A DNA stretch of 64,000 bases, taken from assembly GCA_965277805.1 (NCBI GenBank), contig OZ255842.1, forward strand, positions 3,840,001-3,904,000. The letters are read 5' to 3'. The DNA is from Candidatus Lustribacter sp. GTDB taxonomy: Bacteria > Vulcanimicrobiota > Vulcanimicrobiia > Vulcanimicrobiales > Vulcanimicrobiaceae. Of the stretch, positions 5,181 to 9,453 are shown piece by piece. The notes under the pieces were generated by a model. It saw nothing but the letters and a program-made list of their open reading frames with translations, did not search any database and had not been told where the DNA came from. Made by a program: the position numbers and the translations under genes. Each line of letters starts with the position of its first letter. Position 1 is the first letter of the stretch.

Positions 5181-5540
5181 TTACGCGTCGAGCGAGCGGG
5201 CGCCCGTAAAGGTGAAGATCGGTTCGCGTTCACCGGAGAAGAACGCCATCATGTCCGAGACCATCGCCCGGCAGCTGTCCACCGTCATCTGGTAGCGGCG
5301 TTCGGCCGTGCGGCGGTAGATCGCGGAAACCTGCTCACCGCTGACGCCGTCGAGCGTGGGCGCATCGACGAACGTTGCCATGGCGGCGCCGTCCGCTTGC
5401 TGAGCCACGATGATCGTTTGCCCTTCGTAGGACCAGTGCACCACGTTGCCGTCACGCCAGAGCGTGAGGTTGTCGCCGAAACTGGAAAAGAGCGGCGCGG
5501 CCGCAGCGGCAAGACTTGAGGAGGACGAGGCACTGATCAC
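5181..5540 (-). CDS. Hypothetical protein (~119 aa)
   Basis: GTG at 5540 preceded by AGGA and a TAAGCT -10-like hexamer; protein-like composition. Confidence 0.6.
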   Translation of the reverse strand: MISASSSSSLAAAAAPLFSSFGDNLTLWRDGNVVHWSYEGQTIIVAQQADGAAMATFVDAPTLDGVSGEQVSAIYRRTAERRYQMTVDSCRAMVSDMMAFFSGEREPIFTFTGARSLDA

Positions 5541-5608
5541 GTTCCTAAGCTTACGGCCTGGGAACGGCCGGAGCACCGGCCACGTGGTTAGCCTAAAGGC
5601 CCAAAAAC

Positions 5609-5660
5609 TAGAAAACGGTCGCATCCGCCCGATAGGGTGGAGACGGCCGTTCTTCTATTT
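5609..5660. terminator. Long imperfect hairpin, probable bidirectional terminator or structured RNA
   Basis: TAGAA AACGGTCG CA TCC GCCC GATA GGGT GGA GA CGGCCGTT C TTCTA, with T-runs flanking on both strands. Confidence 0.55.
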
Positions 5661-5674
5661 ACCGGGGGCGGCGC

Positions 5675-5932
5675 TCAGCGAAGGTGCTGGGCGATCGTCT
5701 CGCCGACGATTTCGGGCGCGCCGGCCGGTTGCTGAAAGGCAACCGACATTTTCTCGCCGTTATCGAAGGTGATCGTGGCAGCCGATTCGCTGCTGTCCAG
5801 CGAGGCGACGACGTCGCCGGCATTGCTGACCCAGTGCGCGGAGTCCCACGACAGTTCTTGCGTGCGGACTTGGCGGCCGAGGCGGGCGTGGACCTGATCG
5901 TTAACCGAGTCGATCCATTGATCGAAATTCAT
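5675..5932 (-). CDS. Hypothetical protein (85 aa)
   Basis: ATG at 5932 with AGGAG RBS; MNFDQWIDSVNDQVHARLG... Confidence 0.7.
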   Translation of the reverse strand: MNFDQWIDSVNDQVHARLGRQVRTQELSWDSAHWVSNAGDVVASLDSSESAATITFDNGEKMSVAFQQPAGAPEIVGETIAQHLR

Positions 5933-6002
5933 CTCTACTCCTGAGATCGTTGTCCCTTTGGACAAGACCATCGCAAGCATACAACCGCTCCTGGCCAATT
6001 GC

Positions 6003-6023
6003 AAGACCCAAGTGGGTCTTTTT
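6003..6023 (+). terminator. Hairpin plus T-tract upstream of the toxin gene (terminator or operator)
   Basis: AAGACCC-AAGT-GGGTCTT followed by TTT. Confidence 0.4.
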
Positions 6024-6122
6024 CGTGTATTTGCTATCCAGATGGATAACACGTGAGGCGCGTCACCGGGAGCGAGCGACATTGGTCGGATGCAAAGCCT
6101 CATTTAGATAACGTTTTGCCCC

Positions 6123-6911
6123 TTGCGAACGTTGCTGCCCGTCGTGAAGGGCCGGCGCTATGGAAGCCATCCCGTGATCCAGGCGGTCGGGACCCGCTCT
6201 CCGGTGCCGTCCACTCAAGCCACCTTGACTGTGCGTTTGGCCGATTGGCCATCCGTACAGTTGCCGGCGGACGCCATCGCGCCGGCGCGACCCCAGCCGG
6301 CCGTCGGGCCGCTCGCGCCGGCCGCCCCGGTCGTGCGGCACGTCCCGGCCGGGCCCGCGGTGGCTTTACGGACGAGCCCGGCGGCAGCGGCCCGGATCGC
6401 CGCCGGCCTCCACCAGATCCGCACCGTCGACGGCCGGCCGCTAGCGTACCCGAGCCAGGATCTGCGGGCGATCGAATCGGCCGACCCGCACGAGCACGGC
6501 CAGACGCACGGCCTGACCGAGCACGTCGGCAACGACCTGGCGGCCGACATCCGGCGCCTGCAAGACGAGCCGCAGATCCGGGCCGCCGGCGGCTATACAG
6601 ATGAAGCATGTGCGCAGCTGGCCACCGATCGCACGATCGCGAACCCGGCGAACCAGCGCGCCATCGCCGCCTTCCTCGCCGATCCCGAGCGCTTGAGGAC
6701 GGCGCTCGAGCGGGTCGATGCCGGCCGGACGGTCGGCACGACGGCCACCCGCGCCGATCTGGAAGCTGGACGACCGGTGCTCATCCCGGGACGAACCGCG
6801 ACGGTCGTCCTCATCAAAGACCGCACCTTTCCCGAAGGCTACCGCGTGCTCACCACCTATCCGGATACCCGGCCCGCCGAGGTCGATGCCCGAGGGAGTC
6901 GCCAACAATGA
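6123..6911 (+). CDS. Putative RNase A-fold toxin (bacterial CdiA-CT RNase A domain), start uncertain (TTG 6123 or GTG 6144/6174)
   Basis: C-terminal ~135 aa: DL..IE..HGLTEHVG..IRRL..P.IRAAGGY.D..A..VVL..GYRVLTTYP. Pro/Ala-rich N-terminus. Confidence 0.78.
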   Translation: MRTLLPVVKGRRYGSHPVIQAVGTRSPVPSTQATLTVRLADWPSVQLPADAIAPARPQPAVGPLAPAAPVVRHVPAGPAVALRTSPAAAARIAAGLHQIRTVDGRPLAYPSQDLRAIESADPHEHGQTHGLTEHVGNDLAADIRRLQDEPQIRAAGGYTDEACAQLATDRTIANPANQRAIAAFLADPERLRTALERVDAGRTVGTTATRADLEAGRPVLIPGRTATVVLIKDRTFPEGYRVLTTYPDTRPAEVDARGSRQQ

Positions 6912-7204
6912 TCCACGTGGAAACCGCCGTCTATCCCGAACTGCGCCAGCTCTTCGGCGCCTACCTCAACGCCGAGTTCGCCGCGCAGTACGGCACCGTC
7001 GCCGCGGCGCTCGCGGCCTATGTGCGCGAAACGGGTCCGGGCCACCGCGCGGCGGCCTGCGCCGAACTGGATCGCCTTACCGCCGCGCCGGGCGCGCTCA
7101 CGCGGCTGGATGCCGCGCTGACGGCGCTCGGCTGCGAAGTTGCGCTGGCGAATGCCGGCGAGGCTTGGGGGTTAGCGGCGACGATTAGGCGCGCAATCAG
7201 TTGA
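6908..7204 (+). CDS. Putative CdiI-type immunity protein (98 aa)
   Basis: ATGA overlap with the toxin. YPELRQLFGAYLNAEF..YG..AAY..ELDRL resembles the CdiI_2 (Ykris-type) pattern. Confidence 0.75.
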   Translation: MIHVETAVYPELRQLFGAYLNAEFAAQYGTVAAALAAYVRETGPGHRAAACAELDRLTAAPGALTRLDAALTALGCEVALANAGEAWGLAATIRRAIS

Positions 7205-8613: not shown

Positions 8614-9411
8614 TCACGACCAAGACGGAATCAAGAACGCTTCCGGGCAACCGTCCTCATCGAGCGGGGTGTGCGTCAGGGCCGGCCCTGAGGGAAATGT
8701 GCTGATTGCGCTCGTGTGAAGCGTGATCCAGAACTGCGTGAGGATCGCTCGTCCCGTGCTATCGGTCGCACATTCCAATTGGAGCGCTCGGCCATCGGCT
8801 GTGGCGAACGCCTTTTGGAAAGCAGCGTGGGCGTCATCGCGCGCGATCGTCGCGCCGGCGTGGGCCAACAGATACCGGCCGAACGCGCTGTCGGCGACGG
8901 CTTGACGCATCTGCAATTCCGTCGTAAAAAACTGTTCCGGATCGAAGCCGAAACACTGCACGTGCTTATCGTATTCGTGGGTGAGCAAACTGGTACTCAG
9001 CTGCGGCATCACGGTCGCGAGCTGCGCTTCGAGATCGCGGGAGAGCGGCGGCGGCTCGTCGCTATGATGGAGCAAGTCGCAGCCGCGCGCAAACCATTGC
9101 TGCACGGGCACGTTGGCCTTGATCAGCGCTTGTGGCATTGACGGCCACAATCCGTGCACGCCGATCAGCGGCGTACGAGCCTGCCCGGCACTGCACCGGT
9201 CGTGAAGGCCGGGCCCGAGCAGCGGGCCGTCATCGACGCTGCAGATCCCCGGCTGCCACGTCAATGCAAAGGTGTAAACGTCGAAATCCGGGTACCGGGC
9301 CGGCACGAGTTGCAGCGGCGCCGCGCTCGCCAGCGCGGTAACGGTCACGATCCCGGCCGCGCACGCGAGAAGCGTCAACAAGCGCCGGCGGAGCTTTTCA
9401 AGCACGCCCAT
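8614..9411 (-). CDS. Secreted ribonuclease T2 family protein
   Basis: Signal peptide; ALTWQPGIC, VHGLWP (CAS I) and HEYDKH (CAS II). Confidence 0.9.
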   Translation of the reverse strand: MGVLEKLRRRLLTLLACAAGIVTVTALASAAPLQLVPARYPDFDVYTFALTWQPGICSVDDGPLLGPGLHDRCSAGQARTPLIGVHGLWPSMPQALIKANVPVQQWFARGCDLLHHSDEPPPLSRDLEAQLATVMPQLSTSLLTHEYDKHVQCFGFDPEQFFTTELQMRQAVADSAFGRYLLAHAGATIARDDAHAAFQKAFATADGRALQLECATDSTGRAILTQFWITLHTSAISTFPSGPALTHTPLDEDGCPEAFLIPSWS

Positions 9412-9453
9412 GCCGATCACTTATGCGTTACGTCCTAAACAACTTCCAGGAAG

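Follow-up and report, generated by a model that had tools for sequence, protein, structure and literature searches.

RNase A-like toxins of bacteria have been studied so far as the tips of CdiA proteins, Rhs proteins and effectors of the type VII secretion system (T7SS), or as proteins exported by the Sec pathway. The type member of the family is the C-terminal toxin region of CdiA (CdiA-CT) from Yersinia kristensenii ATCC 33638, whose structure was solved together with that of its immunity protein CdiI (PDB 5E3E; Batot et al. 2017, PMC5435912). There, the domain tips a CdiA protein of more than 3000 residues which is exported by CdiB and carries a VENN pre-toxin motif and an entry domain. Homologues have been reported among effectors of the type V (T5), type VI (T6) and type VII (T7) secretion systems and among lipoproteins; the RNase A-like lipoproteins of Bacillus cereus and Bacillus anthracis (NCBIfam model NF041883) are short, stand-alone proteins with a lipoprotein signal peptide, an adjacent immunity gene and little strain variation (PMC5435912). 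Another stand-alone RNase A fold with an H...T-x-Y active site is that of the Pseudomonas aeruginosa protein ribocin (RbcN), which bears a Sec signal peptide, has a lysine in place of the arginine and targets eukaryotic ribosomes by a delivery route that is not understood; the accessible part of its description mentions no partner immunity protein, and its similarity to the Y. kristensenii family is very low (PMC13189344). Here we describe a two-gene locus which, on the evidence of sequence comparisons and structural models, very probably encodes an RNase A-fold toxin and a CdiI_2-type immunity protein. It lies in a stretch of 64,000 nucleotides (hereafter the window; contig OZ255842.1, positions 3,840,001 to 3,904,000, assembly GCA_965277805.1) from the single-contig genome (5.53 Mb, 95% complete) of Candidatus Lustribacter sp., a soil bacterium of the phylum Eremiobacterota.

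The two genes share both of their Pfam families with the Y. kristensenii pair. The toxin matches RNAse_A_bac (PF18431) over residues 129-247 of the 262-residue open reading frame (ORF) that contains it; the match spans positions 2-113 of the 113 in the profile and scores 55.7 bits (E 1e-14; curated cut-off 27 bits), or 57.8 bits in a scan of the genome. A profile of 25 homologues retrieved a single relative from the PDB, the Y. kristensenii CdiA-CT (5e3e_B, E 1e-8), and a Foldseek search with an AlphaFold2 model built from 55 sequences (mean pLDDT 90.1) returned the same chain (E 2.7e-8) with a TM-score (target) of 0.87 and an r.m.s.d. of 1.9 Å over 120 columns, vertebrate RNase A members being reached at E 0.3-0.8 only. 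Four residues, His117, Arg128, Thr227 and Tyr229 in the numbering of the 245-residue protein (His134, Arg145, Thr244 and Tyr246 in that of the 262-residue ORF), are invariant in all 25 homologues of the active-site alignment and align with residues of 5e3e_B, the arginine following the histidine by 11 positions; across a wider alignment of 55 rows the histidine and arginine are invariant and the threonine and tyrosine nearly so. Their counterparts in CdiA-CT are His175, Arg186, Thr276 and Tyr278, each of which matters according to mutagenesis (PMC5435912). A preliminary description of the locus, written from the DNA letters and a list of their ORFs, had proposed both an RNase A-superfamily nuclease and this spacing of the histidine, the arginine and the T-x-Y motif, and was right on both counts.

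What sets the toxin of the window apart from that of Y. kristensenii, to which it is about 22% identical, is its build: it is a stand-alone protein of 245 residues in which a 45-residue leader and a 65-residue folded subdomain precede the nuclease core and a 15-residue tail follows it. The subdomain consists of a helix (residues 69-76), two strands (81-85 and 88-95) and a second helix (97-100), which the AlphaFold2 model packs on the nuclease. This extension is common to distant relatives, T7SS-type proteins included, whose alignments begin at about query residue 50-60. The WXG100/LXG-like effectors of Actinobacteria and Firmicutes share the extended nuclease (from about query residue 55 in the 520-residue protein of Nocardioides koreensis, L011) but carry a helical WXG100-like delivery domain of 200-350 residues and lie beside a WXG100 gene, neither of which the window protein has. 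Residues D248, R250 and G258 of the tail (262-residue numbering) are invariant. From the Bacillus lipoproteins the toxin differs in lacking a lipoprotein signal peptide, and its only NCBIfam match, to NF041883, is below threshold (19.3 bits against a cut-off of 200).

The length of 245 residues departs from the ORF list, which gives an ORF of 262 residues (6123..6911, + strand, TTG start) carrying the C-terminal sequence quoted in the preliminary description. This ORF exists, but its start is probably placed too early. The real start of the toxin gene is most likely the GTG at 6174, since the protein record from the genome itself (P0003) has 245 residues at 100% identity and since close homologues open with M-I-Q/R-P-V-G at the same point; the intervening DNA (6123-6173) aligns with 1-nucleotide gaps in relatives and can therefore be taken as noncoding.

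The 98-residue protein encoded downstream matches CdiI_2 (PF18593) over residues 9-84 (E 8e-11; 43 bits against a curated cut-off of 26.7 bits) and has the Y. kristensenii CdiI (5e3e_A, E 0.026) as its sole relative in the PDB, in line with the CdiI-like identity suggested earlier. Its ATG (6908-6910) overlaps the toxin TGA (6909-6911) in an ATGA, and a Shine-Dalgarno-like block, GAGGGAG (6892-6898), located within the last toxin codons, is its putative ribosome-binding site. As the preliminary description had noted, the coupled ORF is hidden within a longer one: the ORF list shows a shadow ORF of 198 residues (6608..7204, + strand) whose last 98 codons are those of the immunity gene. When toxin residues 46-245 were modelled with the 98-residue protein, the complex scored 0.90, the best of three controls scoring 0.01, and passed a mark that 116 of 157 solved complexes attain, as do 2 of 215 mismatched pairs. 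At least 98% of contacts are common to the model runs, and the partner has a pLDDT of at least 91. The modelled interface includes toxin residues 112, 116, 227 and 229, so that the immunity protein would sit over the active site as CdiI does in 5E3E; this pass may reflect likeness to the solved 5E3E complex more than it proves binding. The residue aligned with Asp21 of CdiI, which forms a salt bridge with His175, is Glu or Asp in all ten immunity sequences. Coordinates of these and other features are collected in Table 1.

Table 1. Features of the toxin-immunity locus and its surroundings, in window positions; codon numbers follow the 245-residue toxin.
Feature	Position	Strand	Details
Small ORF	5181-5624	-	Divergent from toxin gene
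Small ORF	5675-6103	-	Divergent from toxin gene
Perfect palindrome TATCCAGATGGATA	6035..6048	.	Divergent promoter region between toxin gene and upstream small ORF
Toxin gene	6174..6911	+	245 aa; GTG 6174 to TGA 6909-6911
Disordered leader, residues 1-45, Ala/Pro/Gly-rich	6174..6308	+	pLDDT 53-67
Folded N-terminal extension, residues 46-111, helix/beta-hairpin/helix	6309..6506	+	Outside the Pfam model; pLDDT >94
RNase A-like core (RNAse_A_bac)	6507..6863	+	PF18431, E 1e-14
Putative catalytic codons	His117 6522-6524; Arg128 6555-6557; Thr227 6852-6854; Tyr229 6858-6860	+	
Conserved 15-residue C-terminal tail, P-D-T-R-P-x-E-V-D-A-R-G...	6864..6908	+	Alignment
Immunity gene, 98 aa, CdiI_2 family	6908..7204	+	PF18593, E 8e-11
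RNase T2-family protein, signal-peptide-like N-terminus	8614-9420	-	1.4 kb from toxin pair

The two genes are inherited together. In every one of the nine short-form loci compared (L002-L010), spread over at least three neighbourhoods that are unrelated, the toxin gene is directly followed by the immunity gene, whose product ranges from 99% down to 36% identity to that of the window. These loci and other related ones come from metagenome-assembled genomes (MAGs) named Eremiobacterota/Vulcanimicrobiota and Candidatus Lustribacter, from one Armatimonadota MAG (L010), so that the short form is found in at least one other phylum, from one 5-kb contig binned as Rhodospirillales (L008) and from a genome of Nocardioides, where a WXG100-like protein of 520 residues, adjoining a WXG100 gene, has the domain at its end. 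Five loci (L002, L003, L005, L006 and L007) share the order LysR, amidohydrolase, tetratricopeptide repeat (TPR) protein, two small ORFs, toxin and immunity gene, with toxin identities from 91% down to 50%; a sixth, L004, ends at a contig edge. The neighbours in other lineages are an amino-acid permease and a Usp protein (L008 and L009) or Fpg and a dienelactone hydrolase (L010). Given that the neighbours differ and a CdiI_2-like ORF nonetheless follows the toxin in nine of nine loci, the two-gene pair is the unit of inheritance. It is stable within the genus, where the toxin is found in seven of eight genomes (the one without it being 77% complete), and patchy above it, with the toxin in 8 of the 401 genomes of the phylum sample and in 3 of its 116 genera; ten of the 401 genomes are flagged as unpublished, none of them toxin-bearing.

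The most distinctive part of the toxin is its leader. The preliminary description had called the N-terminus a disordered stretch rich in Ser, Pro, Thr and Ala; this stands for residues 1-45, whereas residues 46-245 are folded (pLDDT >94). It had also noted the lack of a signal peptide, with which the hydropathy profile agrees: the highest value over 12 residues is 0.72 in the toxin against more than 2.2 in relatives with signal peptides, and the leader has no hydrophobic core. Across the nine loci, identity to the window protein falls from 76% to 22% in the leader, as compared with 95% to 42% in the folded extension and 97% to 56% in the RNase core. Two motifs nonetheless persist in relatives down to about 30% identity. 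One is I-[RQ]-[PA]-V-G at the protein start, the window toxin having Ala at the [PA] position; the other is D-[GR]-[IV], which precedes the fold by a median of 18 residues. In the 72 full-length leaders that remained of 120 once 7 sequences lacking the anchor motif and 41 with a leader shorter than 35 residues had been dropped, the looser form I-[RQGA]-[PA]-[VLAI] occurs at the leader start in 50 (5.3 expected from shuffles) and D-[GR]-[IV] in 43 (2.0 expected), counts which describe conservation among related sequences and not independent trials. Of 11 distant representatives, 10 likewise have the second motif somewhere in residues 1-120, a few of them only past residue 60. Its likeness to a TonB box, judged against one TonB-dependent receptor of the genome, was too loose to be retained. 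Pfam searches with the leader and extension alone, at E values up to 10, yielded no family, and the ESM Atlas gave no usable match for residues 1-111.

Most relatives of the toxin are short. A word-based protein search returned 134 clusters of 144-459 residues, and the 120 listed (167-275 residues) all contain PF18431; the same search at 460-2000 residues found no relative, which is weak evidence. An exhaustive search of 1.84 billion representatives (E ≤ 0.001) returned 97 relatives, 84 of them shorter than 400 residues and 12 of at least 443, a few of the short matches being contig-end fragments of Rhs-type proteins. Pfam, run on 51 of the 97, found PF18431 in 50, two tandem RNase domains in seven and a further domain in eight: PT-VENN with DUF6862 in one, T7SS_signal in three, WXG100_2 in two, DUF4781 in one and a transglutaminase core in one. 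PT-VENN, T7SS_signal and WXG100_2 are of the delivery type; DUF4781 and the transglutaminase core are not assigned to delivery. About 12 short distant relatives have hydrophobic, signal-peptide-like or lipobox-like N-termini, and the close clade has none. The proteins with tandem RNase A-like domains (P0129, P0141, P0143, P0144, P0177, P0182 and P0208) overlap with a set of relatives sharing a conserved start, M-E-L-D-G or M-Q-L-D-G, which also includes P0148, P0149, P0157, P0176 and P0209.

None of the established delivery systems of such toxins was found to serve this one. In agreement with the earlier statement that a Rhs, PAAR or WXG domain is missing, PF18431 is the sole Pfam match of the toxin, with no PAAR, VgrG, Rhs or WXG100/LXG domain, and the 44 ORFs scanned in the window, which are housekeeping or metabolic genes, contain no delivery domain in Pfam. 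A weak PAAR-like match in the genome lies only inside an extracellular contractile injection system (eCIS) locus. Searches for ShlB, TPS and PT-VENN were empty in this genome and in all eight genomes of the genus, the control genomes being silent too. The toxin itself is not of the contact-dependent inhibition (CDI) type, as it has 245 residues, its own start and no long close relative among those found. [quoted passage not shown]

We regard the pair as probably a self-contained two-gene toxin-immunity module whose toxin acts outside the cell. As a member of the bacterial RNase A-like family, the toxin would be a ribonuclease that needs no metal, composed of a disordered leader, a folded extension and a core with a His/Arg/Thr/Tyr active site; the translationally coupled CdiI_2 protein would cover that active site and protect the producer, and the toxin would be either a weapon in the manner of bacteriocins or an RNase that is released, and not an internal toxin-antitoxin (TA) switch. 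That it acts outside its producer is somewhat better than an even prospect, because every relative that is characterised or has a readable architecture is exported, and because the leader is disordered and fast-evolving and yet keeps two motifs, as trafficking signals do. The disordered translocation regions of colicins likewise evolve fast and keep their motifs. Nuclease colicins and S-type pyocins consist of a soluble nuclease and a tightly bound immunity protein encoded as a two-gene unit, the nuclease having a disordered N-terminus with short linear motifs and the producer no dedicated secretion system. By analogy, the window pair would work like them, with a nuclease, an immunity protein and a disordered, motif-bearing N-terminus, although we do not claim membership of that group: the toxin has no homologous receptor-binding or translocation domain, D-[GR]-[IV] resembles a TonB box only loosely, and no lysis gene, SOS box or diversification of the immunity interface was seen. 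A more specific and tentative suggestion, which we hold to be possible at about one chance in a few, is that the leader is a trafficking signal of an undescribed type, directing exit from the producer or colicin-style entry without T5, T6, T7, Rhs or Sec.

Several observations weigh against our main reading of the pair. RNase activity, toxicity and neutralisation are predictions from sequence and models. No export or import machinery is linked to the toxin: the whole genome gave no match to PAAR, VipB/TssC, RHS-repeat or WXG100, the controls being positive; the flagellar genes of the phylum are too common for their presence beside the toxin to be a test; and four of the eight toxin-bearing genomes, among them a single-contig chromosome of 3.9 Mb, lack both of the eCIS markers Pvc16_N and T4_gp19. 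The preliminary description had proposed a search for other proteins of the genome sharing the N-terminus, which returned the toxin alone. With residues 1-128 as query, tblastn against the genome found only the gene itself (next match E 0.76), and a regular-expression scan of ORF starts for both motifs found only the toxin, nine ORFs having a start resembling the first motif. Since the leader recurs in no further ORF of the genome, nothing hints at several substrates being served by one signal. Finally, toxin and immunity protein are well conserved together in the genus, the identity of the immunity protein being 79-99% in the five closest loci and 48% in L007, the one that diverges most; none of the strain-level diversification typical of competition toxins is seen.

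It is low diversification of this kind that Batot et al. used to propose nutrient scavenging for the Bacillus RNase A-like lipoproteins (PMC5435912). By the same argument, the toxin of the window might be a released scavenging RNase and the 98-residue protein its protective intracellular inhibitor, following the logic of barnase and barstar and not that of a weapon; a secreted-type RNase T2 gene 1.4 kb away would suit such a role. We consider this improbable, for the toxin has neither a signal peptide nor a lipobox, its occurrence in 8 of 401 genomes is sporadic, and the motifs of the leader hint that it makes a specific contact with another protein. The lack of a match to the secretion markers searched, together with the stand-alone cassette, its translational coupling, its fixed synteny in one genus and patchiness elsewhere (as in TA modules) and a unique conserved upstream palindrome that could be an autoregulatory operator, would also suit an intracellular TA-like, stress or abortive-infection module, in which the RNase stays inside and is released from the immunity protein on a trigger. 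This is rather unlikely in our view: a disordered leader of 45 residues in which motifs are conserved would be of no use to a TA toxin, all relatives with a readable architecture are exported, the immunity protein matches CdiI_2 only in Pfam and no DNA-binding family, and the PADLOC defence models match neither protein. The type II TA module considered in the preliminary description finds no DNA-binding antitoxin here; the toxin gene comes first, and a 45-residue leader precedes a 200-residue domain, an order and a leader which are typical of polymorphic toxins.

Two further routes for a toxin acting outside the cell, and one reading of the gene as a relic, fare worse. Type III export signals are N-terminal and disordered, and the flagellar or type III machinery had been put forward earlier as an unusual route for which the leader would be the signal. 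The genome does hold two FHIPEP (FlhA/SctV-type) genes, and all eight toxin-bearing genomes have at least one; FHIPEP is nonetheless present in 380 of the 401 phylum genomes, near-universal, so that its co-occurrence with the toxin carries no information. FlgM was matched in 3 of 41 genomes of the bacterial family (E ≤ 1e-5), too few for a profile, and the three N-termini, MII(S/T)RAEIE or MINRAELE, are unlike the leader by eye. With no flagellar gene near any of the loci, the proposal has gained no support, and we think it very unlikely. The two FHIPEP genes (C1:956327-958273 and C1:3581800-3583749) clearly differ in score class, one at 876 bits and one at 638; both classes occur in many genomes of the phylum, and others have the lower-scoring class only. 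The genome also has a complete-looking eCIS locus outside the window (C1, about 1,108,000-1,133,000; L016:12145 to L017:16311), with a sheath, a T4_gp19 tube (E 2e-43), Pvc16_N (E 7e-36), CIS_tube, a Phage_base_V spike, the weak PAAR-like ORF, two Baseplate_J proteins, DUF6519 and a 661-residue protein with an eCIS_core domain. Cargo of the Photorhabdus virulence cassettes (PVC) relies on a disordered leader, some 50 residues long, at its N-terminus, and the toxin could be loaded into the eCIS in the same way; Pvc16_N is present in 53 of the 401 phylum genomes (one flagged as unpublished), namely in four of the eight toxin-bearing ones and in 49 of the 393 others. We give this little credence, as the eight genomes come from only three genera, so that the enrichment is not independent, and 2.7 Mb separate the toxin from the eCIS; the four toxin-bearing genomes without eCIS markers indicate that the toxin is kept without an eCIS. 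Orphan cdiA-CT/cdiI cassettes are common in proteobacteria, and this general commonness is all that speaks for the pair as what is left of a decayed CdiA, Rhs or LXG gene, an origin that the preliminary description would have accepted had the homologues always been the tails of long CdiA or Rhs proteins. They are not: the 134 clusters have one and the same short form, of 200-275 residues, with its own start and a conserved N-terminal motif. The gene is intact in six of the seven genomes of the genus that hold it, no match there containing a stop codon; upstream there is no homology to a long gene, a divergent gene beginning 70 bp from the toxin gene; and the word-based search found no close long relative, weak evidence as that is. 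The remnant is excluded in practice.

In the remaining genome of those seven (G402:C134:5379-6014), the toxin match is split between profile positions 2-139 and 173-245, pointing to an internal deletion or a frameshift in that copy. L008 and L009 share an order of ORFs by size (551, 70 and 219 residues, in L009 an amino-acid permease, a 70-residue ORF and a Usp protein) ahead of the toxin and immunity gene, from which the 5-kb contig binned as Rhodospirillales may be misbinned. The neighbouring TPR/ATP-grasp protein had no close orthologue in five genomes of other genera (best identity 42-44%), and hence no insertion site can be defined.

Upstream of the toxin gene, the palindrome TATCCAGATGGATA is kept in five of seven aligned loci and degenerate in L004 and L007. 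It has no second exact copy in the 5.53-Mb genome and three copies when at most one mismatch is allowed, and an SOS-like or other regulon could not be inferred from such numbers. Noncoding blocks conserved throughout the genus, CCCTTGC, CCGTCGTGA and GATGGAAGC, lie just 5' of the toxin start (6100-6173). The palindrome may be a candidate operator or promoter element, and together with the blocks it may form an operator, a promoter or an element of the 5' untranslated region. Within the genus, the two small ORFs divergent from the toxin gene are conserved at 55-99% identity; they are neither paralogous to each other nor matched in Pfam, NCBIfam or PADLOC, and they were rejected as partners of the toxin, as they do not accompany it in loci from other genera. 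Contigs of two metatranscriptome runs, which contained small shares of the sequence words sampled, cover positions 5662-6066, in the upstream small ORF, and elsewhere only scraps of 21-33 bases at 90-95% likeness; they cover no meaningful part of the toxin or immunity gene and are uninformative on their expression. Among the loci fetched, the RNase T2 gene is matched in the closest relative, L002, only.

The family assignment of the toxin is ordinary, and databases already name such proteins "RNase A-like domain-containing protein". What is new is the compact, stand-alone architecture with a short disordered leader, and with it the question of how the protein crosses the envelope. Eremiobacterota are abundant in peat and soil and have few cultured members. 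Should the toxin stay inside its producer, a polymorphic-toxin domain would have been recruited as a TA-like module. If the leader serves for export or import, it would reveal the way such toxins take in phyla of which little is known and would offer a portable targeting tag of small size, and a widespread soil phylum would have a bacteriocin-like delivery route of its own.

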